Assembly: GCA_016699595.1 (NCBI GenBank)
Contig: CP064982.1
Span: forward strand, 276,563-340,562
DNA: 64,000 nucleotides
Direction of reading: 5' to 3'
DNA from: a bacterium
GTDB taxonomy: Bacteria > Patescibacteriota > Dojkabacteria > GCA-016699595
How positions within the stretch are numbered: the stretch's first letter is position 1; each line of letters begins with the position of its first letter. Both the position numbers and the translations under genes were made by a program. Below the pieces are notes generated by a model. That model saw only the letters and a list, made by a program, of their open reading frames with translations, was not told where the DNA came from and searched no databases. This document shows positions 16,034 through 35,642 of this stretch, piece after piece.

Positions 16034-17056
16034 TTATCTAGAAAAGTACTCTTCTAGGCTAATTTGCAAGATTGCAGCTACTGGAATAGCCAAAACAGCA
16101 CCTGCAGCACCGAGTAATGTTGTTCCCGATAGAACAGCAAACAATGTTACAAGTGGATTTAATCCTACAGTTTTATGCATAAGTTTTGGTACTATAAAGT
16201 TGCCTTGAATTTGTTGCCATATCAACACTGCAACAAGATAAATGATTACCAAAATTGGTTCTTCGCCAGTTGCTAAAGCCAAAACTGATGCTAAAGGAAT
16301 TTGCAAAGCGGTTCCAAAATTTGGAATAAGTTCAAATAATCCGGCTATTATTCCCATAGGAATTGCAAACTCAAAGCCTAGTACTGTAAACAATAATGTT
16401 GTAACAATAGCTGAAGTTAGGCAGATAATTAGTTGACTTCTAAACCACATACCTACCTTTGTTACGATCTTGAAAAATATTAGCTGAAATCTTTGTGTAT
16501 CTTTAATGCCAAGCTTATTCAATATTTTTAAAACATCTCTTTGATCAATATTTAAAGAAAGCATAAATCCTGACATTACTAAAACAATAAAAGAATTGAA
16601 TAAAAACTGCATAGAGCTACTAAATATGTTACCTAGATTTGAAATAATGGATACAACTGAGTCAGTATTCGTACTAGACATTATTTCTTTGATGATTTCA
16701 TCGGTATTCAGTTGTTGACCAAATTGAGGAAAAGTTCCACTTATCCAAGCAATAATCCTTTCAATTATGGTCGGAAGATTTTGATAAAACACATTAAACT
16801 GTTCAAACAGTGGGATTGAGACTAATGTAACTAACAATACTAATATTATAAAAGTCAAAATAAATACTGTTATTATAGAAAAAGTTTTGGAAAAATCTTT
16901 TGATCTAAGAAAATTGACTATTGGAAGAAATGCACTATATAAAATAAACGCAAAAAATAGTAAGACAAAAACAGTTTTCAATTCCATTGCAATTGAAAAC
17001 AAGCTAATCACAATCAGAATCATTAGTATTGTTTTGGGTTTAATCTCTATTACCAT
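16034..17056 (-). CDS. AI-2E family transporter (PerM/YhhT/TqsA-like, UPF0118).
   Basis: Eight-TM pattern and a C-terminal '…GLNPLVTLFAVLSGTTLLGAAGAVLAIPVAAIL' typical of AI-2E/UPF0118 permeases. Confidence 0.8.
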   Translation of the reverse strand: MVIEIKPKTILMILIVISLFSIAMELKTVFVLLFFAFILYSAFLPIVNFLRSKDFSKTFSIITVFILTFIILVLLVTLVSIPLFEQFNVFYQNLPTIIERIIAWISGTFPQFGQQLNTDEIIKEIMSSTNTDSVVSIISNLGNIFSSSMQFLFNSFIVLVMSGFMLSLNIDQRDVLKILNKLGIKDTQRFQLIFFKIVTKVGMWFRSQLIICLTSAIVTTLLFTVLGFEFAIPMGIIAGLFELIPNFGTALQIPLASVLALATGEEPILVIIYLVAVLIWQQIQGNFIVPKLMHKTVGLNPLVTLFAVLSGTTLLGAAGAVLAIPVAAILQISLEEYFSR

Positions 17057-17076
17057 ATTTTTAATTGTATTACATT

Positions 17077-17811
17077 TTATATAATTCTCGCAGTTATTAC
17101 AATCCTTTGTTTATCAGATCCAATAGGTGTACAAGTGACCAACTTTATAGATTGGAAGCCTTCATTTTTGACAGCTGACCAATCAGTTTTCTCTACTATT
17201 CTTGTATCAATGACCTGATATTTGTATATTTGACCCTTCCAGCTAATTTCAATGCTTTCTCCTACATGAACTTTGTCTAAATTATAAAATGTTTCTGTTT
17301 TTGGAGGCATATGATAATACCTATGACCATATATAACAGTAGTACCAATTACTTCAGGTGTAAACCCATTTGGATAAACCCAGAAGCCCTTTGTCATTGC
17401 AGCTTCACCCTCATTCATCGATCCTTCAACAAGTCCACCTTTTATCTTCGGATTACTTATCATCAAAGAATTTGATTGAAGATTGGATACTTCTTGAATT
17501 AGTTTAGTTTGTTCATCATTTGGAATACTATCATCAAAAGTAATTTCACTTGCATTTACATTCTCCAGAAATGGAGAACTATCTTTGAAGTTAGCAATGT
17601 TTATTGTACCTGGGAGTTCAATTTGATTTTCCAATATCAAAGGATTTGCAAGTATATTCCCAGATAAAGTTTGATAGTTATAAATCACATATGTCATCAG
17701 AAACACAGATGAAAGTAAACTTATTACCTGCATCTGCATTCTGAAAACTTTTCTTATTCTTGCTTTTCTTCTTTGATAATTAATACCTTTTAGTAAATTC
17801 ATATCAAACAA
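17077..17811 (-). CDS. Sortase-family transpeptidase.
   Basis: N-terminal membrane anchor, a catalytic His in 'VIYGHRYY', and the active-site Cys in 'IKLVTCTP' (TLxTC motif). Confidence 0.8.
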   Translation of the reverse strand: MFDMNLLKGINYQRRKARIRKVFRMQMQVISLLSSVFLMTYVIYNYQTLSGNILANPLILENQIELPGTINIANFKDSSPFLENVNASEITFDDSIPNDEQTKLIQEVSNLQSNSLMISNPKIKGGLVEGSMNEGEAAMTKGFWVYPNGFTPEVIGTTVIYGHRYYHMPPKTETFYNLDKVHVGESIEISWKGQIYKYQVIDTRIVEKTDWSAVKNEGFQSIKLVTCTPIGSDKQRIVITARII

Positions 17812-17815
17812 TTTA

Positions 17816-20800
17816 TCAAGAGTATTTCTTCAAATTTGGCCACGCTACACCAAAAGCGACAATTATTGAGCTCAAAATTATTGCTATCAATATTGATTCA
17901 GGAATATTTTGTAAATTTAGTACACCTGAAGTTTTTGGCATTTCTTTTGGTGTTTCAGTAGTTCCCAAAACTTCTGGCTGTTTAATTTTGACAAATGCTT
18001 GAGCGATAGCTTCATTATTTGGACCAATTACTTTGGCATTATTTATAACATTCTCTGAAGACTTCAATGCATTTGTATAAACTGTGAATATTAGATATTG
18101 ACCATTTGTCAAACTACCTACTTGTTCTATGACATTCGTATTGCCAAAAGTGTAAATGTTCGCATTGGTTTCATTTATATTTACTACAAGAGGTGCAGTT
18201 TCAAATAAGACAGTTCCATTTGCATCTCTTTTTTGGACAAATACTGAACTAAAGCTTAGATATTGCTTATCAAAGCTATCAGTAAATCTCAAAGAGTTTA
18301 TTGGTTCACAATTTCCTGAACATAGATTTTTCGTAATAATTTCCCATTGAACCTTTTGTCCGATTTCGACTAAAGCTCCAGTTTTGTTAGTTTTTGTCAA
18401 ATTTATATATGGAGTATCTTTTGTAACAATAACTACATTCATACAAAGAGAGTTTGTAGTATCTGCAAATGTTCCAGTAATCGGACTTTGTATTCCCTCT
18501 ACTTGTCCTGATGCTTGTCCACCAAAGTTACAAGCTAAACCAGCAGGCGCAGATTCCTTTACTTTGAATACAACTATAATATTCTTTGTACCTAAGGGTT
18601 CTATATTACCTATATTATTGATTACGAAAGTTCCAATATTGGTTGATGTATTATTTGAATCATAACCAGGATTTGTACTTTCTAATGATAATCTTGTTGA
18701 ATCATAATTATCAACAATTCTTACATTTTGCACTAAAACTGTACCTAAGTTTCTTACACTAATATTGTATGTAATTGAGTTTGGATTATTTTGCAATACT
18801 GTCTTACTTATTGCAATATTAGTACTAACTACATCGATATTCCACCCGTCACAATTATCGTAGTTATCATAGTTATTGACTGTATTGATAGGGTTGGAAA
18901 CTACATCACAATTAATGTCTGTAGTATCAATTTCTCCACCTCCTGAGACACTAGCTACGTTTGAAATATTACCAATAAATCCTGTGTTTATGTTTGCAAC
19001 AACTGTAATTATGGAATTTTGATTCACTCCTAATGCTTGACTTCTTGTACATGTAATATCATTACCTACATTACTACAATTCCAGTTAGTTCCACTAGCA
19101 CTAACGAAAGTCAGTGTAGAAGGAAGATTTTCTGTAACTACTATTGGACTATTTGTTGCAACCTGACCTACATTCAGAACCTTAAGTTGGTAACTTACTT
19201 GTCCGCCTGTGGTGACATTTGTATCTGAAGTCTTTTGTATTATCAAATTTGGGTACTGAGCAACTGGAGTACTAGTAGTTGAGCTAGTTGCTGGTGTACT
19301 TGTTGGTGTTGAGCTTGAGACTGGGTTACTGCAACTAGCAGAACAATTTGCACTTGTTCCACCATTTGTTCCACTGCATGTCCATGAAACAGTTCCATTG
19401 GAGAACGTAGGATTTGCAGGATTTGCTGTCCCCTGTGCACATAGTGGTGTGAGAGTTCTGCTACATGATCCACTAGTTCCATTTGCACTTCCACATACTC
19501 CATTGACTGGAGTTGGTGGTTTCAAACAACTAGCAGAACAATTTGCACTTGTTCCACCATTTGTTCCACTGCATGTCCATGAAACAGTTCCTCCATTTTG
19601 TGGGTATGAAATTGTTTCACTACCAGCATTACCTGGGTTACATAGATCTCCTGTAGGTATACTAGTGCCACATGTCCCTGTTCCTCCATTTGCACTTCCA
19701 CATACTGCATTTATTGGAGTTTGCGTAATTGTCAGCGTCCAACCGTCACAATTATCTTGATTATTATCATTATTACTGTCATTATCACCTTCTAGGTCTG
19801 CATCGCATGCCCAGTCAGTAGTATCACCATCTGTTGTATCGGTTGAATCTATAATTCTTGCATGGTCAACAATAGTATGGTTTACTGGTGCATTATCATT
19901 GATCTTCACATATACCTTTACAACTGTATCCCATACATTTATTGAAGGTACATATTGTTTTGTCGTTGTACATACTACTCTATGATTTGGATTGTTGGGT
20001 GGATTTGGATCGTACTTTGTACATGTCCATCCAGTTCCTGCTACTAGTGATTGGTATGTATAGTATTCTCCTTGGACGGGTGCTTCTAGAACTGTAATTG
20101 TTCCATTTGTAGAAGCATTACCTATATTTGATATTTTCACTGTGTATTCAATTGTATCACCTGCTTTTGCTGAGCTTGCATTACCTTGCTTTTGTATTAT
20201 CAAGTTTGGCTTTGTAACAACTTGTGTACATGATTTGCCTGTTGTACACATAGCAGATACTGTCATTCCATCGGACGGTCTTGCTAGATTACAAGATACA
20301 CCTGAGTTGGTAACGTATCCACTAGGTTTATATTCGGTAACATCAATTATTCCCCAGTCTAGTTGAACAGATCCACATCTATCATATGGAGCTGTAGAGT
20401 TCATTGGATAATTTCTCCCGACTGTAATATTTTTTGTTTCTCCTGCTTGTAGTGTGATCTTTTGAACTGATTTATCGTTTTGGCCTGGATTTTGATCGCA
20501 TGAGAAGTATTGATTATCTTGATCATCCCAGTGACTACCGTATTGTGACATACAAGAGTATGTCATTGATTCATTTTGTGGCAGTTTACCGTATCTAACA
20601 TCTATTGTATAGCCAGTTGTATTTCTCAAAGACAAAGTTTGAGTTAGGGAATCATTACTGTTGTTTCTTGTTCCACATCTATATGCATCTTCTTTACTAT
20701 ATATCCCTCCAGATTGTGGGTCTCCGTAAAAACTACAGCCAGAATTACAATTATCTGATACTGATTCTATCTTCACTCCACATGTAATATTACTAGCAGG

Positions 20801-20962
20801 TGTAGGTATCTCTACTGCCCTCCCACTAAATGCTGAAGGTCGATCGGTAAATTTGTTTTGTATCTTTAAAACAGAAAGTCCTATGATAAATAGTGACAAA
20901 AAAATAACCGCAAAGATAAAAACAAAGCTTTTTGTTTTTAGTATTTTTTGAAAATTTCCCAT
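17816..20962 (-). CDS. Large Cys-rich cell-surface protein (1048 aa) with DUF11-type repeat domains, two tandem 65-aa Cys-rich modules, and a C-terminal sorting-signal-like anchor.
   Basis: Signal anchor at the N-terminus. DUF11-like segments ('NLIIQKQGNASSAKAGDTIEYTVKISNIGNAST', 'NLIIQKTSDTNVTTGGQVSYQLKVLNVGQ'). Duplicated module '…NGGTVSWTCSGTNGGTSANCSASC'. C-terminus reads '…EMPKTSGVLNLQNIPESILIAIILSSIIVAFGVAWPNLKKYS' (motif, hydrophobic helix, basic tail). Immediately upstream of the sortase gene. Confidence 0.7.
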   Translation of the reverse strand: MGNFQKILKTKSFVFIFAVIFLSLFIIGLSVLKIQNKFTDRPSAFSGRAVEIPTPASNITCGVKIESVSDNCNSGCSFYGDPQSGGIYSKEDAYRCGTRNNSNDSLTQTLSLRNTTGYTIDVRYGKLPQNESMTYSCMSQYGSHWDDQDNQYFSCDQNPGQNDKSVQKITLQAGETKNITVGRNYPMNSTAPYDRCGSVQLDWGIIDVTEYKPSGYVTNSGVSCNLARPSDGMTVSAMCTTGKSCTQVVTKPNLIIQKQGNASSAKAGDTIEYTVKISNIGNASTNGTITVLEAPVQGEYYTYQSLVAGTGWTCTKYDPNPPNNPNHRVVCTTTKQYVPSINVWDTVVKVYVKINDNAPVNHTIVDHARIIDSTDTTDGDTTDWACDADLEGDNDSNNDNNQDNCDGWTLTITQTPINAVCGSANGGTGTCGTSIPTGDLCNPGNAGSETISYPQNGGTVSWTCSGTNGGTSANCSASCLKPPTPVNGVCGSANGTSGSCSRTLTPLCAQGTANPANPTFSNGTVSWTCSGTNGGTSANCSASCSNPVSSSTPTSTPATSSTTSTPVAQYPNLIIQKTSDTNVTTGGQVSYQLKVLNVGQVATNSPIVVTENLPSTLTFVSASGTNWNCSNVGNDITCTRSQALGVNQNSIITVVANINTGFIGNISNVASVSGGGEIDTTDINCDVVSNPINTVNNYDNYDNCDGWNIDVVSTNIAISKTVLQNNPNSITYNISVRNLGTVLVQNVRIVDNYDSTRLSLESTNPGYDSNNTSTNIGTFVINNIGNIEPLGTKNIIVVFKVKESAPAGLACNFGGQASGQVEGIQSPITGTFADTTNSLCMNVVIVTKDTPYINLTKTNKTGALVEIGQKVQWEIITKNLCSGNCEPINSLRFTDSFDKQYLSFSSVFVQKRDANGTVLFETAPLVVNINETNANIYTFGNTNVIEQVGSLTNGQYLIFTVYTNALKSSENVINNAKVIGPNNEAIAQAFVKIKQPEVLGTTETPKEMPKTSGVLNLQNIPESILIAIILSSIIVAFGVAWPNLKKYS
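19333..19591. repeat. Perfect 64-bp direct repeat (copies at 19333-19396 and 19528-19591) spaced 195 bp apart and in frame, inside the surface-protein gene.
   Basis: Identical string 'aactagcagaacaatttgcacttgttccaccatttgttccactgcatgtccatgaaacagttcc' at both positions. Corresponds to the duplicated '…TVSWTCSGTNGGTSANCSASC' protein module. Locally GC-richer than the surroundings. Confidence 0.85.
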
Positions 20963-22022: not shown

Positions 22023-25000
22023 TTAAATGACATTTATGCTAATTGGTGAAGATGATAAAGTTCCTACGCTCGTAACATAGTTAACCAAAAAAATATAGTT
22101 TCCAGTTGATGTTGGAGTATAATTTATTTGAAATAACTTGTTTCCGATATCGGTCATACTAGCATATTGTATACCATTTACAAGTAAAATGACATTTGTA
22201 TAATCAGTTGAACCAGCATACTTAGCAGTAATTGCAAATGGAGTATTTACAGCTTTTGAACTTCCTGAAGCAGGAGAAGTTATCGTTAAAATTCCGTTTA
22301 AAGTTTGAGTTGGATTCACTATACTAATAGAAACTTCATTCATAGCAACACTACCTCCAACATCTGTAGCCTCTATTTTCAGCAAGTGTAATCCTGATGC
22401 AAAACTATTATTTATGTTTATATTGGTAACTAGCGAGTTTCCACTTGAAGTGGATATCAAACTATTATCTAGATATGCTTTCATACTAATGACATCACCT
22501 AATGCTCCGGTAGCACTCGCGTTCACAATCAACATTTCTCCAATATTTATTGACTGACTTTGTTGTGGAGAAGCTATAGTAATTATTGGCTTGAGATTCA
22601 AAGAAACATAATCAGTATCGCAATTTGTCAATTTTGCAGATGGAGATTGCTTTAACAACTTATCTATCTGGTCTTGCATTTCTGCTTTAGGCATTTTTAT
22701 ATAAACATTCAAATCTTCTTTTGCAAAATTGTATTGTATGTCAATATCTCTCGCCTTCATCTTTTGTGACTGATCGTTCAATTTCGCTTGTGCATCTGAA
22801 TAAGACGCAGGTTTATCTGTGCAGACCTGTATCTTAGTTATACTATCATCTACTGCTGGTAATTTATCAGCTAGAAACATAGATTTACTTGTCTTATCAC
22901 AGGTTGAACTAGCGGGGAGACCAGAGTAATTACAAACAGTAACTTCTGTAATTCCACTTGGTTTTTCCCAATCATCATTCTTTTTATATGTATCAGGATA
23001 ATTCGCAACAAGCTGTTTCATAAAATCATTATAAATAGGTAGTGATAGAGTCGCACCGTCTGATCGCAAATTTACAGCACTGTTATCGTTGTTACCTGAC
23101 CATACTCCAACACTAATGTGTTTTGAATATCCAACATACCAATTATCCAAACTATCATTAGTTGTGCCTGTCTTCCCAGATCTTATATATCCATTCAATT
23201 CTGGTATCCAAAACCTACTATAATACTTTGCAGGACCAGACTCTTTTATGACATCATTCATAAGATATGCAGCTCTAGAGTCAATGACCTGTTTTGCCAA
23301 CTTTTCTGGCTCGTACTTCCATAAAATATTTCCATTTTTATCTTCAATTCTAAGTATGCTTTGAACTGGATGAGAAATTCCTAAATTTCCTAAAGTGGCA
23401 TATGCATTTATATGTTCGATAGGTAAAATGTCATTTGCACCTAATATGGTAGTTGGAACTATTTCACCAACATCTTTGAAAGTAGTATAACCAAGCTTAT
23501 TGAACATATTAAATACTAATTCGTTCCCCATTATTTGCTGGGCAATAAAAGCTGGCCTGTTGTATGAAGCCCTAAGCTGATCTCTCAAAAAGTTTTTTGT
23601 AGATCCAGCTGAATACCCAACACCACCACCAAATGCATTTTGTGGTGTATAGTTACCTACTTTATAAGGAACATCAGGTATAAATGCCGAAGGATATAAA
23701 CTTCCGTTTTCAAATCCAGCAACTTCAGATATAGGTTTCATACTTGAACCTGGCTGTTGTAAAGAATTCATAATGTTCACCTGTCCGTCGAACTTACTAA
23801 TTCCTGTGTTTGCATTTTTGCCTTCACTCTCTAGGTTATAACCTTTTGATCCTACCATAGCCAGTACTTCACCAGTTCTTGAATCAATAGCTCCTAAAGA
23901 ACTATTATAAGCTCCATAATTTTTTTTGTTTGATTCTGCGCCATCGAAAACTGCCTTTTGTGCGATATTTTGGATATCTAGATCTATAGTCGTGAAAATA
24001 TTGTACCCTCGTTCATTTAGCATACTCATGGTCAGAGGTTTATCATCTATAAAAATAGCATTCTCATCAATTAATTGACCAATTGCATAATCTACAAAGT
24101 GAGGAGCATTTTTTTCTACAGTTGGAGTTACAAATGCAAGTTCTTCAGTTCTTGCAGATTGTATGTCTTGAATTGGGATGTTGATTCCATGGTCTTTCAA
24201 TAATTCTTGTTCTTGTTCAAATTCATTTAGGACAAATAGTTGCCTGCACTTGTAAGGGTTTGTTTCTATAACTGTTGATCCATCAAATGCAACGGTAACT
24301 TTGCCATTTTCATCTCTACTATATTGTCCTTCAGACAAACCTATTCCTGTACTATCTCCTTGCTTTTCTCTACAAACTATTTGTTTCGAATTGTATGGCG
24401 AATAAATCGTCCAATTCTGAGGGAGTCCTGCCAGAAATGTACTTTCTCCAAGTGTCAACTGATCGAGCTCCTTGTTAAAGTAATATCTAGCAGCAGTTTT
24501 CACTCCATAAGATGTTGGCGAAAAGTCCACTTCATTTAGGTAAAATGTAAGTATAGTGTCTTTTGAGTATAGTTGATTCAATCTCAACGCAAGAATCATT
24601 TCTTTAATTTTCCTTGTCTTTGTGTCGTAAGGATAATCTTTGAAGACAGTATTTTTAAGTATTTGTTGAGTTATAGTTGAACCTCCACAATTTCCCTTGC
24701 GTAAATATGTCACATAAAAACATCTTGCAGTAGCTACGATATCAACTCCAGGATCTTCATAATATCTTTTGTTTTCCGCCAAAAGGAAAGACCATTTGAC
24801 CCTATCAGGAACCTCGGAAATATCTTGCAACAAATCTCTATCAACATCACCAATTTGTTTGTAAAGAAACTTACCATTGCGATCATAAAATATAGAAGGT
24901 TCAGTTTGTCCTCTTTCAAACGGCTTGGTAGGATCAGGCAAATCTTCAGTGAACTTTGCTACCAAAGCTATACCACCAACAAATCCAATAATTGTAAATA

Positions 25001-25208
25001 TAAATCCTCCCCAAAGAAATACAAGTAAAACACTTTTCAACTTCTTTTTAAGTGCAGTTTTCTTTCTTGTTTTTGAGTAAGTATTTAGTGATGCCAATCC
25101 TTGTGGAGTGGTACTTTTTCTTTTTTTCCTTGATCCAATGGTTTTCTTTGTCTGATTCATGGAAGTAAATATTTTGAAAAAATAGAGAATTATATATATA
25201 TTGCCCAA
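22023..25208 (-). CDS. Class A penicillin-binding protein (GT51 transglycosylase plus transpeptidase) with a C-terminal extension of about 300 aa. The true start is probably the internal Met (MNQTKK…) near 25160.
   Basis: GT51 motif 'GGSTITQQILKN', transpeptidase motifs 'SSMKP' (SxxK) and 'SGKTGTT' (KTG), and a TM helix 'LLVFLWGGFIFTIIGFVGGIALVA'. Confidence 0.9.
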   Translation of the reverse strand: MGNIYIILYFFKIFTSMNQTKKTIGSRKKRKSTTPQGLASLNTYSKTRKKTALKKKLKSVLLVFLWGGFIFTIIGFVGGIALVAKFTEDLPDPTKPFERGQTEPSIFYDRNGKFLYKQIGDVDRDLLQDISEVPDRVKWSFLLAENKRYYEDPGVDIVATARCFYVTYLRKGNCGGSTITQQILKNTVFKDYPYDTKTRKIKEMILALRLNQLYSKDTILTFYLNEVDFSPTSYGVKTAARYYFNKELDQLTLGESTFLAGLPQNWTIYSPYNSKQIVCREKQGDSTGIGLSEGQYSRDENGKVTVAFDGSTVIETNPYKCRQLFVLNEFEQEQELLKDHGINIPIQDIQSARTEELAFVTPTVEKNAPHFVDYAIGQLIDENAIFIDDKPLTMSMLNERGYNIFTTIDLDIQNIAQKAVFDGAESNKKNYGAYNSSLGAIDSRTGEVLAMVGSKGYNLESEGKNANTGISKFDGQVNIMNSLQQPGSSMKPISEVAGFENGSLYPSAFIPDVPYKVGNYTPQNAFGGGVGYSAGSTKNFLRDQLRASYNRPAFIAQQIMGNELVFNMFNKLGYTTFKDVGEIVPTTILGANDILPIEHINAYATLGNLGISHPVQSILRIEDKNGNILWKYEPEKLAKQVIDSRAAYLMNDVIKESGPAKYYSRFWIPELNGYIRSGKTGTTNDSLDNWYVGYSKHISVGVWSGNNDNSAVNLRSDGATLSLPIYNDFMKQLVANYPDTYKKNDDWEKPSGITEVTVCNYSGLPASSTCDKTSKSMFLADKLPAVDDSITKIQVCTDKPASYSDAQAKLNDQSQKMKARDIDIQYNFAKEDLNVYIKMPKAEMQDQIDKLLKQSPSAKLTNCDTDYVSLNLKPIITIASPQQSQSINIGEMLIVNASATGALGDVISMKAYLDNSLISTSSGNSLVTNININNSFASGLHLLKIEATDVGGSVAMNEVSISIVNPTQTLNGILTITSPASGSSKAVNTPFAITAKYAGSTDYTNVILLVNGIQYASMTDIGNKLFQINYTPTSTGNYIFLVNYVTSVGTLSSSPISINVI

Positions 25209-25384
25209 AAGACAAATGCAATAGCACCTGTGAACAAAAATGATACTGTGTATAGTATAAATTTCTTCATATTGTCAGAAATTTTAGCAAAAACCTAAGA
25301 CTTTTGAAAGAGATATAAATTTCATTTTTCAAACTTACAAAAACTATGGCATATATTTTCGGAGTTTGCTAATATTGAAAAAAA

Positions 25385-26326
25385 ATGGACTTAGTCAATA
25401 AGGTTGAAAACCAGAGATTTGATAATTTTGATAATAATGATGCAATATCTTTTGTAGATATTATAAATGCACTAGGTTCTCACTTCAATCATACTACAGC
25501 AGATAATAATTCAACTAGTATTCAAAGAGATAGCAGGACTGGACAAACTAAACTCGGTATAGCAACTGAAGCGACAGCAAAAGAAGTTTTGCAAATGCTA
25601 AAGCAAGAGGCAAATACTGATATCTCAGATTTTGGTAGAAGACTCAAAGATGTAGGAATACTTTTAGCTAGAGAAGATATTGTTCAAAAATCAAATATTG
25701 CTTTAGAATTCGCAAATCAAGTATACCGATTAGGTTGTAGTATAAGGAATGAAGATGTAAGAGAAATATCTGATTTATCTAAGCAAAATTTATCAAACGA
25801 ATCTCAAACATATAAAAATGAACTTTTTTTATGGGCTATAGGAAGAGATGATCCAGATAGTAAGTATGCAAGAAATCTTCATGGTTGGAAAAGAGTTCAT
25901 CCTATAGAAAAACCATATGTTGGAGATAAAATCACGAAAGAACAAAGGGAACTGAAAGCTAGAAGAAGTGAAGCAACATTAAAACATAAAAGTCTATTAC
26001 TCAAATACTTTGTAGAAAATATAGAATCAAGAAACGGTGAATTATCAAAAGAAACAAAAGTAGGACTTGAAAAGACATTTTTATCAGCTGCTAAACAAGC
26101 TACCATAAATATACTTACGAAAAATGCATGGCAAAATTGGGAAAAGAATCTGAGAGTTCCACCTGCAGAAAGAAAACAATATCTTGATAATGATATACGA
26201 CAAATCTTCGAAATAATACCAGGCTTTAAAGACGAAAGTTTAAGAATAGTCGAGGCAGTGAATGAACTAAAAAATTCTGAAAGATGGCACAATTTATCAG
26301 ATATAGAAAAAGTCAGAGACATTTAG
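25385..26326 (+). CDS. Hypothetical cytoplasmic protein (313 aa). No recognisable domain.
   Basis: Clean ATG-initiated ORF on the opposite strand from the flanking core genes. No TM or signal peptide. Charged, helical-looking sequence. Confidence 0.5.
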   Translation: MDLVNKVENQRFDNFDNNDAISFVDIINALGSHFNHTTADNNSTSIQRDSRTGQTKLGIATEATAKEVLQMLKQEANTDISDFGRRLKDVGILLAREDIVQKSNIALEFANQVYRLGCSIRNEDVREISDLSKQNLSNESQTYKNELFLWAIGRDDPDSKYARNLHGWKRVHPIEKPYVGDKITKEQRELKARRSEATLKHKSLLLKYFVENIESRNGELSKETKVGLEKTFLSAAKQATINILTKNAWQNWEKNLRVPPAERKQYLDNDIRQIFEIIPGFKDESLRIVEAVNELKNSERWHNLSDIEKVRDI

Positions 26327-26428
26327 GATGTATGCCAAACTTATGCTCCTGCCAAAACTTATAGCCCTGCCACGGCTCTTGAAAGTAGAGAATTTGAGTG
26401 TCAGCTTCAGTCATTTCTGGCAGGGAAC

Positions 26429-27274
26429 TTGATCAAAAAATATATTCCAAATGTCAAAGTAGCAACTTGGTATGAGCATCGTCATATAAAACTTGCACTA
26501 AATGTACAAGACGAAAACTATATGTTTGATGCAAATATAAGTAAAGAGAAACACGAAAGTAATCGTAATATTTCAGTTATGAATCATGATATATTTTACG
26601 CAACGTATGCTATCGGTATTACTCCAGAAATAGATGGAGTTTTGAAAAAGTATTTTGAAACAGGTATAGATCAGTTTATGCCTACTGAAAAAGCTGGATA
26701 TATCTCTGTTGGTGATTTTGATAAGACTATAGTAGGAGGTATTATTTTAAATCTTGTGGGTGGTGAATTTATTTCAGACAAAAAGATGCAGATTGCACTT
26801 TTGAGATTAGTAATTGAAATAAATCCAAATTATGCTGAAGGATATAATAATTTAGGAACTAAACTAACTGGAGAAGAGGCAATAAGTATGTTCAGAAAAG
26901 CAATTGAAATTAATCCAAATTTTGCTACAGCGTATTATAACTTAGGTCTTCGATTAACTGGGGCAGAAGCTATATGGATGCTCAGAAAAGCAATTGAGAT
27001 AAATCCAAACTATGTTAATGCATATTATAATTTGGCCAATAAAATTAGATATAATAAAACATTACAAACTCGAGAAAACTTACAATTAGCTTTAAGAAGT
27101 ATAAACAAATACTTTGAACTTGCACAAAACGATTTGGGACAAGTTAAAACAAACTTTTTTACTGAATATGCACCAGAATACAAGCATTTCTTTGAACGAA
27201 AGATTGCTCAGATTGAGCGACGAGATAGAATGAAAACATTATTTAAGAAAATTCTTCGCTACTTCCAAATCTAG
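26429..27274 (+). CDS. TPR-like repeat protein with three near-identical 30-aa repeats. TTG start as tabulated.
   Basis: Protein repeats 'RKAIEINPNYAEGYNNLGTKLTGEEAISMF' / 'RKAIEINPNFATAYYNLGLRLTGAEAIWML' / 'RKAIEINPNYVNAYYNLANK'. Confidence 0.55.
   Translation: MIKKYIPNVKVATWYEHRHIKLALNVQDENYMFDANISKEKHESNRNISVMNHDIFYATYAIGITPEIDGVLKKYFETGIDQFMPTEKAGYISVGDFDKTIVGGIILNLVGGEFISDKKMQIALLRLVIEINPNYAEGYNNLGTKLTGEEAISMFRKAIEINPNFATAYYNLGLRLTGAEAIWMLRKAIEINPNYVNAYYNLANKIRYNKTLQTRENLQLALRSINKYFELAQNDLGQVKTNFFTEYAPEYKHFFERKIAQIERRDRMKTLFKKILRYFQI
26812..27040. repeat. Tandem 90-bp DNA repeat (about 2.5 units) encoding the TPR-like repeats.
   Basis: 'aattgaaat(a/t)aatccaaat…' recurs at 26812, 26902 and 26992 with roughly 80% identity. 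Confidence 0.8.
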
Positions 27275-29782
27275 TTTTTCTAAATCAACATCTTTCGGTA
27301 CTTTGAAGTTTTTTGTTCCAAATTTGAGATAAGGTCCATACTTACCATCCATCAAAATTACTTTTTTTTTACCTATCATGCCAAGATCTTTTCCTTTTGG
27401 AGTAGATTTAGTTCTAGTTGATCTAGATTTAGTCTTAGAGTTTTTAATTAACTCAATTGCTTGCTCTTCAGTTATATCAAACAAGTTAAACTCTTCTGGA
27501 ATTGAAGTATATTTTGCATTCCAAAGTAAGTATGGTCCAAACTTCCCAAACCCAGCACGAATTTCTAAACTATCAAGTTTCCCAACAAGTCTAGGTAACT
27601 CAATAATCTTCAAAGCAAGTTCTGGAGTTATATCTTTTGTACCTTTTGGAATTGAATAGTTTTTGTCTCCGACTTTCAAATATGCTCCAAATCTTCCTGA
27701 TTTCAAAAATATATCCTCACCTTCACTATTTTTTGCAATTGGTTCATCTGATCTAGCCTTCGTTTGAAGTAATTCTTCAACTTTCTCGTCTGTCAGATCA
27801 GCTGGCAAAACTTCATTTGGAATAGTTGATTTTTCAGTAACTTCATCAAAATTTATTTTTTCACTATCTAGCTTTGGATCAACTTTATTTACAAAAGCAC
27901 CGAACTTCCCTACTCTAACTTTGTATTTTTGAGATAAGTTTGGCAAATTCACAATACTAGCTAGTCTTGGATTTATTTCTTTCTCTTCTCTTTTTGTAAT
28001 TTCCTCTAAACCTTGTTCGCCCAAATAAAACTTTTTCAAATAATCCAACCAATCTACATTTCCAGTTTCAATTTCGTCTAATGTATCTTCCATTGCAGAT
28101 GTAAACTTTAGATCAACTAAATTTCCAAAATGCTTTTGAAGTAAATTATCAACTGCAAATGCTGTGTAAGTTGGGACAAGTTGATTTCCAAGCCTTGATA
28201 TATAACCTCGAGATTGGATAGTTGAAATAATACTTGCATAAGTTGAAGGTCTACCAATTCCTTCTTCTTCAAGTTTTTTCACTAAACTTGCATCATTGTA
28301 TCTTGCTGGTGGTTTAGTTTCGTGAATGTTTGAAACCAAATCTTTTAAATCTAATTTATTTCCAACTTGAAGTTCTGGTAATGTTTGATTTTCTTCTGAT
28401 TCTGAATCATCTAAATTTCCTTCCTTATAGGAAGGTGTCACATTTCGTGACGGAAGGTTATATAGTTTCAAAAATCCATCAAACTTAATGATCGATCCTG
28501 TTGAATGAAATATATAACTTTGATCGTTAGAACTAATATCTACCGAAGTTTGATCAATAATAGCTTCTTTCATCTGAGATCCAAGAGTTCTCTTCCAAAT
28601 TAGATCATAAAGTTTCGCTAATTCTCCTTCCAAACCAAGTTCCTGAGCTGAACTAAATTTGTTTCCAGCTGGCCTTATCGCTTCATGGGCTTCTTGTGCG
28701 TTTTTTGAGCGAGATTTATATTTTCTGAAATAACCTGCCCAATAATTTGCTCCAAATTCTTTCTCAATTTTATTTTTTATTCCAAATAATGCTTGATCTG
28801 ACAAATTAACCGAATCAGTTCTCATATAAGTTATATACCCAAGCTCATATAGTTTTTGAGCAACTTGCATAGTTTGTTTTGAACTAAATCCAAGTTTCCT
28901 ATTTGCATCAATTTGCAAACTTGAAGTAATGTATGGAGCGGCAGGATTTCTTTTGACTTCAGACTTTTCAACATTTGTAACTACAAAATCTTGTGCTTTA
29001 ATCTTGTTTATGATTTCATCTTTACTATTTTCAGTAATTATAACTAATTCTTTATTTAATAATTTTCCATCTTCACCAAAGTCTTTGCTTGTTGCAACTT
29101 TTTGCGAATTTATCTCAACTAATTTTGAATCAAAATTTTGTTTTTCAAATTCAAAAGTTCCAGTTATTGAATCAAATGAGGCAACTTTGAAATTCATTCT
29201 TTCAAGTTCACGAGCAACTACAATTTTTACTGCAACTGATTGAACTCTTCCAGCTGAAAGACCAAAAGCAATTTTTTTCCAGAGTAATGGTGAGATAGTA
29301 TAGCCAACGAGTCTATCCAAAATTCTTCTAGTTTCTTGAGCTTGAACTACATTCATATCAATTGTTCTAGGATTTTTGAGAGCTTCTTCGATTGCTGAAT
29401 TTGTAATTTCGTGAAAAACTATCCTTTTTGATTTTTGAGGTAAGGCCAAAACTTCTTGCAAGTGCCAACTAATTGCTTCTCCTTCACGATCTTCGTCAGT
29501 TGCCAAAATTACATCGTTAGAACTCAAGATCAAGTCCTTCAATTCTTTTATAACTTTTTTTTTATCACTCGGAACTACATAAAGCGGTTCAAAGTTATTT
29601 TCAACATTTATGCCAAGTCTTGCCCATTTTTCTTTTTTGAATTTTGCTGGGATATCTGCAGCTGATTCTGGAAGATCACGGATATGTCCAAAAGATGCTC
29701 GAACTGTGAAATTGTTTCCAAGAAACTTGGATATTGTCTTTGCTTTTGTAGGTGATTCAACGATAATCAGTGTTTGACTCAT
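27239..29782 (-). CDS. topA: DNA topoisomerase I.
   Basis: Toprim N-terminus 'LIIVESPTKAKTISKFLG', the topo IA core, and repeated C-terminal 'GKFGPY/GRFGAY/GKYGPY' modules. Confidence 0.95.
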   Translation of the reverse strand: MSQTLIIVESPTKAKTISKFLGNNFTVRASFGHIRDLPESAADIPAKFKKEKWARLGINVENNFEPLYVVPSDKKKVIKELKDLILSSNDVILATDEDREGEAISWHLQEVLALPQKSKRIVFHEITNSAIEEALKNPRTIDMNVVQAQETRRILDRLVGYTISPLLWKKIAFGLSAGRVQSVAVKIVVARELERMNFKVASFDSITGTFEFEKQNFDSKLVEINSQKVATSKDFGEDGKLLNKELVIITENSKDEIINKIKAQDFVVTNVEKSEVKRNPAAPYITSSLQIDANRKLGFSSKQTMQVAQKLYELGYITYMRTDSVNLSDQALFGIKNKIEKEFGANYWAGYFRKYKSRSKNAQEAHEAIRPAGNKFSSAQELGLEGELAKLYDLIWKRTLGSQMKEAIIDQTSVDISSNDQSYIFHSTGSIIKFDGFLKLYNLPSRNVTPSYKEGNLDDSESEENQTLPELQVGNKLDLKDLVSNIHETKPPARYNDASLVKKLEEEGIGRPSTYASIISTIQSRGYISRLGNQLVPTYTAFAVDNLLQKHFGNLVDLKFTSAMEDTLDEIETGNVDWLDYLKKFYLGEQGLEEITKREEKEINPRLASIVNLPNLSQKYKVRVGKFGAFVNKVDPKLDSEKINFDEVTEKSTIPNEVLPADLTDEKVEELLQTKARSDEPIAKNSEGEDIFLKSGRFGAYLKVGDKNYSIPKGTKDITPELALKIIELPRLVGKLDSLEIRAGFGKFGPYLLWNAKYTSIPEEFNLFDITEEQAIELIKNSKTKSRSTRTKSTPKGKDLGMIGKKKVILMDGKYGPYLKFGTKNFKVPKDVDLEKLDLEVAKNFLK

Positions 29783-29903: not shown

Positions 29904-30368
29904 CTACTTTAAGTATTCCAACCTTTCTTTATCTTTTGCCTTGATTTTTCTTAGTTTTAATATTGCTTTTTCTATGTCTTTCACAACTACTAAACCTTTT
30001 TCTCTCAAACTATCTTCATATTGTGGTCCTATAGCATTTAACACATGATTGATGCCAAATGATCCCATAGTACTAAGAATAGTAGAGTAATACTCAGCAA
30101 GGAGTTTCAAATCCTGAAAGCTAGGTTCAATTAACTTTTTGTCAAAAATTATACAATCAATCAAAAATCTGTCAGACAAACCGAGCGGAAGTTTCATCTT
30201 TGTATATCTTTCAACCAATGTCAATAAATCTCGACTTTTGACTCTTTCTAAACTTTTCTTTTCCCACTCCCAGGGCATGCGATCTGCAGCAATGTTCTCA
30301 ACTTCCTCATCACTCCAATAACCGGCTAATATATCATCCATCAAAGTTTCTTCTATGTATTTGGGCAA
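29904..30368 (-). CDS. Hypothetical protein (154 aa).
   Basis: ORF only. No motif recognised. Confidence 0.4.
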   Translation of the reverse strand: MPKYIEETLMDDILAGYWSDEEVENIAADRMPWEWEKKSLERVKSRDLLTLVERYTKMKLPLGLSDRFLIDCIIFDKKLIEPSFQDLKLLAEYYSTILSTMGSFGINHVLNAIGPQYEDSLREKGLVVVKDIEKAILKLRKIKAKDKERLEYLK

Positions 30369-32270: not shown

Positions 32271-33419
32271 TTATTGCTTTTTACAAACTCCCATTAAGCC
32301 ACCACCAATATCTACACTATTGCTTGTATCACATTTCAATCCTGTTGCACAATCAAATTGATTCACTCCGTCGAAACCACAACTTTGATCTAACTCTACA
32401 TTTTCAATAATATTAATATTTACAGTTATACTTGAACTTTGGGAAAAGTTTGTTGAATTACTACTATTATTAACTTCAGAACTTGAGCTAGATCTAGTCT
32501 CTGCTTGATCACTTGTTCCTACAAGTTGATAATTCATAGTTATATCAAACATTGTGCTAAATTCTGAAATATCTAACTTTTGCCAATCTATAAATTTTTC
32601 AACTTTGTATTCATATTTTTGACCAGTTTCATTTGCATAAAAGTATCTGGTTTCTAAAACTTTGTAATCACTTTTATTGAAAACATAAATTCGGCCATAA
32701 GCATTTTGGATACTTGCTCCGACTGTAATTTCAGCTCTATCATTTGTTTCTGAAGTAACTTTTGTGTCTGATTTTTCACCATTTAGGAGTGACTTTAAAT
32801 ATTCTACCCCATTAGGCTCTGAGTTTAGATAATTCAAGTAATTTTTTCCATTTTCGTTTTTAAGCCAAATTGTGCCGTTCGAATATATCAAACTTGTTCC
32901 TCCAACAACCTTCTTTTGGAAATATTGATTATCTGAATTTGTATGTTCAAAAATCTCAAATGTTAGACCTCCAACATTATTTAATTCTAAATCTAAACTA
33001 GGAACTTTGGTAGAATAATTATTTATTACATAAGAATAATCTTTCCCGGGTAAAACATTGTATTTTCTAACATAAATAAAGTTTTCCAAAGTTTCATCTA
33101 TCATTGCACTAACTTTACTGATAGCAAAAGGTTCGGCCTTATTTGAAATTAAATAAGAATTTACTCCTAAAAATATCGCAAAAATTGCAACTGCAGCAAC
33201 TGTACCAGCTAAGAATTTTTGATAAAAAGACATAAATTTCGTAATCTTGGTAGGGATATTTTTCATTCCACTACCAACAACTTGTGATTTTGTCGAAACA
33301 GCAAGTTTATTCATGACTTCAGACTTGAGTTTATTCCGAAATTCTTCTCTAGCTTCCGGAAAACTAGATTGAAACATTTCGTTTAACTTTGAGTTTTGTT
33401 TATTGAAGTCATCTTGCAT
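32271..33419 (-). CDS. Putative anti-sigma factor or membrane protein cotranscribed with the ECF sigma gene. Single TM helix and a C-terminal Cys-rich tail.
   Basis: Lies 28 nt downstream of the sigma gene. ~70-aa cytoplasmic N-terminus, TM helix 'FLAGTVAAVAIFAIFLGV', then an extracytoplasmic domain ending '…CGFDGVNQFDCATGLKCDTSNSVDIGGGLMGVCKKQ'. Function inferred from context. Confidence 0.4.
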   Translation of the reverse strand: MQDDFNKQNSKLNEMFQSSFPEAREEFRNKLKSEVMNKLAVSTKSQVVGSGMKNIPTKITKFMSFYQKFLAGTVAAVAIFAIFLGVNSYLISNKAEPFAISKVSAMIDETLENFIYVRKYNVLPGKDYSYVINNYSTKVPSLDLELNNVGGLTFEIFEHTNSDNQYFQKKVVGGTSLIYSNGTIWLKNENGKNYLNYLNSEPNGVEYLKSLLNGEKSDTKVTSETNDRAEITVGASIQNAYGRIYVFNKSDYKVLETRYFYANETGQKYEYKVEKFIDWQKLDISEFSTMFDITMNYQLVGTSDQAETRSSSSSEVNNSSNSTNFSQSSSITVNINIIENVELDQSCGFDGVNQFDCATGLKCDTSNSVDIGGGLMGVCKKQ

Positions 33420-34244: not shown

Positions 34245-35642
34245 TTAATCTTTAATTAATTTTCTAACTACTTCTTGGTCACTGTATGGATATTCTGTAG
34301 TTCCAAAACAAAGTGATTGCTCGTGACCTTTTCCACAGATAACAATTATATCTTGGGGATTTGCAATTTCCATCGCTTTTGCAATTCCTAGTTCTCTACT
34401 TTTGACTTCTGGTTCATCAAATCTAAATACCTCAGGTTTAAATGCTTCCTCAACTTTTCTAATTCCAATTTCAATCTGATTATTGATCTCTTCTAAATCT
34501 TCCGTTCTAGGATCCTCAGGAACAAGGATTATTGTATCAGCAAGTTTTGCTGCAACTTCTCCCATTATAGGTCTTTTTGATGTGTCTCGTAAACCTGCAC
34601 AACCAAAAATAACAATTAATTTACTGTCTTTACTCTTTAAGTTATTTACAGCAGTTAAAGCATTTTCCAACGCATTTGGGGTATGTGCGAAATCAACTAT
34701 AATCATTGGTAAATCGCTATGTTTCCAACTTTCTAAATAGGACTTATTTGTCATAACTTCCATTCTTCCAGGAAGTGAAGTGAAAGTTGACAGAGCAGTA
34801 GCAATATTGTCTAAATTAATTTTCAAATTTTCACAAACTGAAATTGCTGCAAGTGCATTGTAAACATTATAGTTTCCGAGCATTGGAACTTGAAATAGTT
34901 TATCTAAAATACCATCTTTGTGATTCATTGAAAATAAATCTATGTTTAATTTTTCATCAAATTCTGCCGAATACCAAGTTTCGTTATCTTTTCTATATAA
35001 ATTAAATTGAATTCCTTCTAAGTTAGTTTGAACATTTTTGGCTTTATTTATACCTTTGTCAATTCCATAACTAACTAAATCCATCTTTCTACTTAATCTA
35101 ATCATTTGAAGAATTCGTTTTTGAATAAACTCATAACTTCTATCATCAGCATTGGCAACTACAACTCCATTACCTTTCAAATTATCAATCAATTTCAATT
35201 TTGCCTCTAAATAATTTTCATAATTTTCATGATAATCAAAATGATCTTGAGTTATATTTGTATAAACAGCATAATCAAATTTTATTCCCCAATATCTAAA
35301 TTGATCAAGTGCGTGAGAAGTTGTCTCAAGAACTACATATTCAATTTTTTTATCAACCATCATTTTCAGATACTTCTGTATATCTTTAGGATTAGGTGAA
35401 GTTACATGAAAACCAGTATCAAGATCATCATCTCCAATTTTTGCAGAAATTGTAGAAACCATCCCAGATTTAAAATTATTATGTTTCAAAATGTGGTAAA
35501 TCATATTTGAAGTCGTAGTTTTTCCGTCAGTTCCAGTTACTCCTATTATTTTCAGCTTTTTGCTTGGAAATCTATAAATGATATTCCAAAAAATTGCTTG
35601 TGGTAAGTGTAAAAAATAGTTTTTGATAGTTTGTAGTTTCAT
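34245..35642 (-). CDS. murE: Mur ligase family, MurE-like (UDP-MurNAc-tripeptide synthetase).
   Basis: ATP-binding '[16 protein letters not shown]' and '[13 protein letters not shown]' (MurE motif DYAHTPDAL). The third amino-acid specificity cannot be determined. Confidence 0.7.

Follow-up and report, generated by a model that had tools for sequence, protein, structure and literature searches.

The described systems that come closest to the locus treated here are tetratricopeptide repeat (TPR) proteins, thiol enzymes of the transglutaminase/papain-like type, and bacterial genes split by a nonsense mutation. Canonical TPR proteins, such as the CTPR designs and the OGT superhelix, are built from 34-residue units. 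In transglutaminase/papain-like enzymes Cys, His and Asp (or Asn) follow each other in that order, the triad of yeast PNGase being Cys191, His218 and Asp235, and an oxyanion-hole Gln lies upstream of the Cys. Their fold is alpha+beta, the Cys standing at the N-terminus of a helix and facing the His and Asp on neighbouring strands. A split gene is recognised as adjacent open reading frames (ORFs) in the same frame which are jointly collinear with single intact homologues. The locus lies on the forward strand of a 64,000 nt stretch (the window) of a Dojkabacteria genome (GCA_016699595.1, contig CP064982.1, positions 276,563 to 340,562), between the genes of the class A penicillin-binding protein PBP1A and of topoisomerase I (topA). 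The original prediction described it as a two-gene cassette, running against minus-strand genes on both sides, with a 313-aa protein and a protein of near-identical TPR-like repeats. The two plus-strand ORFs are indeed there, 25385..26326 (313 aa, ATG start) and 26429..27274 (281 aa, TTG start), and both oppose their flanks. It seems, with a probability that we put at about 0.72, that 25385..27274 is one ancestral gene of a rare uncharacterised family and not a two-gene cassette, and that a TGG-to-TAG change has recently inactivated or split this gene.

Reading frame and amber codon

The starts of the 313-aa and 281-aa ORFs are 1044 nt apart (348 x 3), hence they share one frame. The sole stop between them is the TAG at 26324-26326, and the remaining 102 nt are free of stops. 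Both ORFs are coding, and in composition they belong to this genome: the signs of GC skew and AT skew reverse over exactly 25250-27250, which fits plus-strand coding there, and both ORFs have the GC1>GC2>GC3 pattern typical of real genes. For synonymous codon usage the 313-aa ORF scores 0.289 and the 281-aa ORF 0.218, versus a window mean of 0.214 (standard deviation 0.048).

Translated straight through the TAG, the whole frame is collinear with P0153 (639 aa, 57% identity), P0164 (652 aa, 55%) and, at ~32-33% identity, P0154, P0160 and P0156. The full-length relatives measure 557-667 aa and all have both parts fused, the part resembling the 313-aa ORF continuing directly into the TPR-like part. 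This fusion is seen in P0153, P0154, P0156, P0158, P0160 and P0164/P0165, where P0158 is an N-truncated member. The two ORFs of the window are thus adjacent, in one frame and jointly collinear with single intact homologues, as expected of a split gene.

The position of the TAG is held by a Trp (W314) which is invariant in all five other full-length family members (5/5). Across the junction P0153 reads ...IEKVRDIWDVCQTYAHAETLMPTKAIETRELECQLKTFLAGNLLKRFIP..., and the straight translation of the window gives ...IEKVRDI*DVCQTYAPAKTYSPATALESREFECQLQSFLAGNLIKKYIP...; at the DNA level the window has GTC AGA GAC ATT TAG GAT versus GTA AGA GAC ATA TGG GAT in the related locus L093. The 102 nt spacer that follows is the best conserved segment of all, with an amino acid identity of 67.6% to P0153 and 73.5% to P0164, and with a proportion of nonsynonymous differences (pN) of 0.13-0.17 versus a proportion of synonymous differences (pS) of 0.70-0.91. 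It encodes two further invariant residues, Q318 (26336-26338) and C339 (26399-26401). The coordinates of these and the surrounding features are collected in Table 1.

Table 1. Features of the locus and its flanks, numbered from the first nucleotide of the window.
Feature	Position	Strand	Basis
PBP1A (class A penicillin-binding protein)	22023..25208	-	Pfam Transgly, Transpeptidase and Big_7
Divergent spacer, PBP1A to inserted gene	25209..25384	.	ORF coordinates
Proposed ancestral reading frame, 629 sense codons and terminal TAG	25385..27274	+	Straight translation shows one internal stop only
N-terminal part, codons 1-313, NCBI hypothetical protein QQR93820.1	25385..26323	+	60.5% identity to P0153 residues 4-313
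In-frame amber TAG at the invariant Trp position (W314)	26324..26326	+	Comparison with family members
Apparent intergenic spacer, conserved coding, codons 315-348	26327..26428	+	Amino acid identity to P0153/P0164, pN versus pS
Downstream ORF, codons 349-629, NCBI TPR protein QQR93821.1, TTG start	26429..27274	+	Family alignment
Three 30-aa TPR-like units (26813-26902, 26903-26992, 26993-27082), the third degenerate	26813..27082	+	Pfam, Tandem Repeats Finder, repeat search, AlphaFold2
Convergent 36-bp overlap, 3' end of inserted gene and 3' end of topA	27239..27274	.	ORF coordinates
topA (topoisomerase I)	27239..29782	-	Pfam Toprim and Topoisom_bac

In every segment of the gene the nonsynonymous rate (dN) is far under the saturated synonymous rate (dS), as calculated by the Nei-Gojobori method. 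With the P0153-P0164 pair as control, dN on the window branch is 0.30 versus 0.18 for the N-terminal part, 0.39 versus 0.24 for the middle, and 0.40-0.48 versus 0.47 for the TPR and C-terminal part. We found no dN excess downstream of the TAG relative to upstream and no second lesion in the frame, hence the lesion appears to be either young compared to the divergence of the lineages or bypassed. As judged from these comparisons, a recent nonsense mutation yielding a young pseudogene or a split gene is most likely. A single G-to-A transition would have turned the TGG of the invariant Trp-314 into TAG, with translation ending after 313 residues; the mutation would be evolutionarily recent and would have left a young pseudogene, or at most a split gene. 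On this account QQR93820.1 and QQR93821.1 would stand in GenBank as fragments of one gene, and the seemingly intergenic stretch between them would be coding and hold the invariant Cys of the family.

Some points weigh against one recently broken gene. The A at 26325 is known from two assemblies of one sample, which could share a consensus error. The role of TAG as a stop was judged on 64 kb only, and a suppressor tRNA or a loss of release factor 1 could lie elsewhere in the genome. Moreover, the 303 codons downstream are still open at 31% GC, which fits a recent mutation and equally read-through or re-initiation. We regard it as quite improbable that the TAG stems from an error of sequencing or consensus calling, or represents a minority allele, and that the organism in fact carries an intact TGG gene. 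The genome is metagenome-assembled, and error-prone read sets of the organism may exist: in a Logan contig of 1554 bp (P0162/P0163, same 90% cluster as the TPR ORF; the TAG site is not covered) the frame breaks twice, after ...GVLK and ...KTNF, and the breaks map to A5 and T6 homopolymer runs in the window. They resemble homopolymer errors of long reads more than a biological change, a cause which we infer. On the other hand, the TAG is a substitution and not a homopolymer indel, hence atypical of long-read error, and the separate Logan assembly L001 (run SRR11674035) matches the window at all 7382 bases, TAG included (100% identity). It would also be quite an unlikely outcome if the annotated QQR93820.1 and QQR93821.1 were two separate functional genes, with the 313-aa protein and a 250-281-aa TPR protein acting as a pair after an evolved or tolerated fission. 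Both halves are open and have host-like codon usage; the TTG is preceded by GGCAGGGAAC and could, like ATG 26522, act as a restart site (the Logan gene call for the downstream ORF begins at ATG 26522, not at TTG 26429); and N-terminal-only family ORFs are found elsewhere, as P0155 (272 aa) and P0157 (201 aa). However, these candidate starts are no new features: TTG 26429 encodes the Leu of LAGNL and ATG 26522 the Met of NYMFD, two family motifs with the same residues in P0153 and P0164, hence neither seems to be an evolved start site. The split also strips 35 codons (314-348), including the invariant W314, Q318 and C339, from both annotated products, and the five other full-length members are all fused (5/5). 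As P0155 is a shortened allele of P0160, which itself is intact, the short family ORFs look like damage and not design. The cassette of the original prediction was hence given up for a single gene, because there is one frame with one stop, the intact and collinear fused homologues have Trp at the site of the TAG, and the spacer is the best conserved segment.

A TAG that is read through or suppressed, whether by programmed read-through, a suppressor tRNA or local recoding, would let the 629-aa protein still be made, perhaps at a regulated low level. The lack of secondary lesions and of a dN excess downstream would agree with this, as would a frame without a stop over the next 303 codons of an AT-rich genome, but we hold it to be very unlikely. 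TAG closes seven other ORFs of the window, apparently at normal gene ends, including rpmA (86 aa) and a HerA-like ATPase gene, and no other long frame in the 64 kb window is split by an in-frame TAG, which makes a genome-wide reassignment of TAG unlikely; as judged within these 64 kb the interrupting codon is a genuine stop. The sole tRNA gene found in the window is Gly-CCC, the region around the stop and the spacer folds no better as RNA than shuffled sequence (z = -0.07), and a plain transition is the simplest account of TGG-to-TAG. The spacer was also considered as an RNA element or terminator, with its 18-bp direct repeat and the inverted repeat CCCTGCCA...TGGCAGGG. This was rejected, as it folds like shuffled sequence and its features are coding sequence; no terminator and no Rfam family were found in the spacer, and its motif is present once in the window. 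A literature search on in-frame stop codons and pseudogenes in Patescibacteria gave no hits.

The protein family and its domains

In a word-indexed search of 5.8 billion proteins the 313-aa ORF retrieved only itself, and the matches of the TPR ORF cover the TPR part only. When 1.84 billion cluster representatives were scanned exhaustively with HMMER, seven more proteins came up at E <= 0.001; among them P0159, a low-complexity repeat, is doubtful. P0153 ranked first, with ~60% identity over residues 2-313. It should be noted that 'ORFan' calls from the word-indexed search alone can be false negatives, as this 60%-identical homologue was missed there. The narrower family alignment A4 as query gave one extra locus in metagenomes and no relative among viral contigs. 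With ~8 representatives in 1.84 billion clusters this is a newly defined and very rare family, with a shortened TPR period.

The 313-aa ORF has no match in Pfam, NCBIfam, PADLOC or PDB sequences. The PADLOC defence profiles gave 0 matches for either ORF, and in PHROGs only TPR-type families of function unknown were matched, with no membership of a phage or defence family. The statement of the original prediction that no domain but a TPR-like repeat can be assigned therefore holds against Pfam, NCBIfam, PHROGs, PADLOC and PDB sequences, with the correction that homologues do exist. From the alignments the family may be described as proteins of ~560-670 aa with helices in the N-terminal region, Q/C/H/D conserved at the centre, and TPR-like repeats of short period at the C-terminus. 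The AlphaFold2 single-sequence model of the 313-aa ORF is all-helical but unreliable, with a predicted local distance difference test score (pLDDT) of 40.

The repeats were recognised as TPR by profile, with 65.6 bits for Pfam TPR_11 (PF13414; cut-off 26.8) and 58.3 bits for TPR_17 (PF13431; cut-off 24.4). Their period is not the 34 residues of TPR: it is 30 aa in the window and in P0153 and 31 aa in P0154 and P0156, and one unit of P0164 has 35 aa. Tandem Repeats Finder detected a 90-bp period at 26812-27030 (2.4 copies, 77% matches), and a second repeat search found three units, units 2 and 3 being 73% and 62% identical to unit 1. In codon register units 1 and 2 agree at 70% of amino acids and 76% of nucleotides, and unit 3 agrees with the others at 36% and 53-58%, respectively. 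The 90-bp period of the original prediction is thus present, while its near-identical units of about 80% DNA identity were not found, and the recent expansion that it read from them was not borne out either. The units sit in homologous alignment columns across the species of the family, and unit 1 of the window is 60-66% identical in amino acids to units of P0153 and P0164, so that the likeness within the window is barely above that between species. Hence, as far as the alignment can tell, the array is old and kept near consensus, with no recent expansion. As regards copy number, the window has fewer recognisable units than P0153 (three versus four).

In the AlphaFold2 model of the 281-aa ORF residues 121-230 have a pLDDT of 88-98. 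The helix pairs 136-145/148-161 and 166-175/178-191 consist of 10-residue A and 14-residue B helices (pLDDT 88-98), and they are followed by a capping helix and then a 39-residue terminal helix. The model thus predicts antiparallel A/B helix pairs in a right-handed solenoid, and Foldseek against the PDB returned TPR proteins only, of OGT type and designed TPR, over 138-143 columns at a root mean square deviation of 2.5-2.9 A. The N-terminal 100 residues have a pLDDT below 50, probably because the false gene start cuts through a domain.

The 470 residues before the TPRs have no relative in Pfam or the PDB, as single sequences or as profiles. The best profile matches of this part, to bacteriohemerythrin (E = 0.07) and SidK (E = 0.1), are not significant and were set aside. 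Q318, C339, H367 (26483-26485) and D382 (26528-26530) are invariant in all six full-length members, though some of these are only ~30% identical. The Gln lies 21 residues before the Cys, followed by the spacing Cys-28-His-15-Asp, and the family thus has the ordered Cys, His and Asp with an upstream Gln of the transglutaminase/papain-like enzymes. By eye, an amphipathic stretch (CQLQSFLAGNLIKKY) is seen after the Cys, and the His and Asp lie in the alternating-hydrophobic segments HIKLALNV and NYMFDAN; reading the sequence in the same way shows no sign of a signal peptide or membrane segment.

The Q...C-28-H-15-D pattern suggests a transglutaminase/papain-like thiol enzyme, as a lead only. Should the lead hold, the intact protein would be a soluble thiol enzyme with a Cys-His-Asp core (protease, transglutaminase, deamidase or acyltransferase type), the short TPR array may recruit a protein partner or substrate, and the nonsense mutation would abolish the thiol-enzyme activity. 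Further, we speculate that the family could form an unrecognised class of soluble thiol enzymes, with the Cys-His-Asp core in a new ~470-aa scaffold and 30-31-aa TPRs for targeting, serving as a mobile accessory or effector gene of small-genome, possibly host-dependent bacteria; in the present genome the amber codon at Trp-314 would be tolerated by read-through, or the gene would be in a reversible contingency off-state. This wider proposal is unlikely. Pfam scans of four and seven members and PDB profile searches with the alignments A3 and A4 detected no thiol-enzyme family at E <= 10, and the sole model that covers the His and Asp, made from the truncated ORF, has a pLDDT below 50 there and shows helices; both results count against an enzyme. 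A pattern search of related loci for transglutaminase-like core sequences gave no true examples. If the thiol-enzyme idea is true, the papain-like superfamily would be extended modestly, with no long-standing question affected.

The topA-PBP1A junction and other genomic contexts

The closest public topA proteins are 49-59% identical to that of the window, hence the lineage is poorly sampled. In eight related contigs, representing six distinct topA proteins (L082, L083/L084, L090/L091, L092, L003 and L023), PBP1A follows directly after topA on the same strand, with a gap of 84-89 bp in L082, L083/L084, L090/L091 and L092 and of 193-196 bp in L003 and L023. The PBP1A orthologues at L082, L083/L084, L090/L091 and L092 are 35-39% identical to that of the window. 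The tblastn search with the full protein revealed no remnant of the family at any related topA locus examined, which implies that the 2.0-kb segment is an insertion into a conserved junction in the lineage of the window. The gene is a lineage-specific insert between topA and PBP1A, and here the original prediction of an accessory segment was right: the two flanking genes are adjacent in the eight related contigs (84-196 bp), no remnant was detected and the family is extremely rare. The locus does not consist of conserved core genes of known function in all relatives, so the accessory and unassigned reading stands.

At the edges of the insert we detected no flanking direct or inverted repeats, no tRNA gene and no Pfam-detectable integrase domain, and the insert shows no shift in composition or codon usage from the neighbouring genes. 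The last 12 codons of the inserted gene overlap the 3' end of topA on the opposite strand. At its C-terminus topA aligns right to the end with P0034, its closest relative, so topA is not extended, and the inserted gene extends 17 codons beyond the end of P0153. The spacer between PBP1A and the inserted gene holds a promoter-like TTCAAA-18-TATATT at 25328-25357 (+), which is a consensus match only, such sites being no commoner than in shuffled sequence.

Two other relatives have a rearranged topA neighbourhood (L085-L087 and L088/L089). At L085 12420-13343 (-), and also in L086 and L087, a 307-aa ORF without Pfam match is convergent to topA (56% identical) with a 17-bp 3' overlap; as a relative of the present family it was rejected, with E > 2 to the window ORFs. 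Its geometry is nevertheless that of the insert in the window, and lineage-specific genes may have settled repeatedly on the 3' side of topA. On the other side of topA, a Mur ligase gene is the immediate upstream neighbour in L083/L084 and L088/L089; in L082 and L090 it is one to three small genes away. The Mur ligase locus of the window is at 34245-35642 (-), with five genes before topA (an ECF-type, i.e. extracytoplasmic function, sigma factor, a 382-aa unknown, NUDIX, thioredoxin reductase and a 154-aa unknown), which indicates that this neighbourhood gained other inserts too. The 154-aa ORF (29904-30368, -) directly upstream of topA has no NCBIfam or PADLOC match and an insignificant best PHROGs match (E = 0.15); it has no Pfam match, and neither have the ORFs at 32271-33419 (-, 382 aa) and 11744-14263 (-, 839 aa). 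Elsewhere in the window, at 16034-20962 (-), a sortase gene (17077-17811) adjoins the genes of a 1048-aa DUF11/DUF7507-repeat protein and an AI-2E family transporter, and these genes suggest a Gram-positive-type sortase-anchored surface protein. Taken with the GC content of 31% and the length of the source contig, only 761,814 bp, they would fit an uncultured lineage of small genome size, possibly Patescibacteria/CPR.

The other family members are found in unrelated contexts, on contigs of 31-47% GC. One adjoins fmt (L093) and one a citrate synthase fragment (L094); the L096 member is 5'-truncated and adjoins an IS1595 transposase, and the L095 member breaks off in the TPRs, with a DDE transposase gene following after 24 bp. 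P0160 (ENA), the relative of L096, has a ~37-aa tandem duplication at residues ~270-345 (IFPRLLSFFVHQLEWNAKRTTTDTSSSTPNHTQVGIN / IFPRLLRFFVHQLKWNAERTTTDTSSSTPNNTQVGIN). P0155 is truncated at the start of this duplication, and P0158 begins there, directly after the IS1595 transposase. It seems that the duplication point in the P0160-type gene is a breakage hot spot. Members that are truncated, flanked by insertion sequences (IS) or bearing a nonsense codon show the behaviour of a dispensable, mobile and often inactivated accessory gene.

Comparison with known systems

The locus resembles ordinary nonsense-mutation pseudogenes and split genes of bacteria in that one TGG-to-TAG transition lies at a conserved codon and the adjacent ORFs of the same frame are annotated separately. 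As in those cases this is an accessory gene of variable position, whose relatives elsewhere are IS-flanked or truncated. There is no essential difference; only that no further decay is seen, which points to a recent event or leaves room for read-through.

As regards Transglut_core and PNGase-type clan CA enzymes, the residue order and spacing of the window family recall a minimal transglutaminase-like core. Unlike the transglutaminase/papain-like enzymes, on the other hand, the family gives no hidden Markov model or profile match to them, and we take the resemblance as a lead and not as membership.

Compared to canonical TPR proteins the units of the window are ~4 residues shorter, the missing residues belonging to the last part of helix A and to the turn (query residues 134-205 align to CTPR3 7-86). 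Among generic TPR matches the motif recurs in 24 of 30, spaced 34 residues or multiples thereof, save for one spacing of 35 and a few longer irregular gaps. The window protein has only 2-3 good units, followed by the 39-residue terminal helix. Nevertheless, consensus residues of the type AIEINPNYAEAYYNLG of the canonical 34-residue proteins are present in the window repeats, and the TPR ORF gives strong phmmer matches to CTPR and OGT chains.

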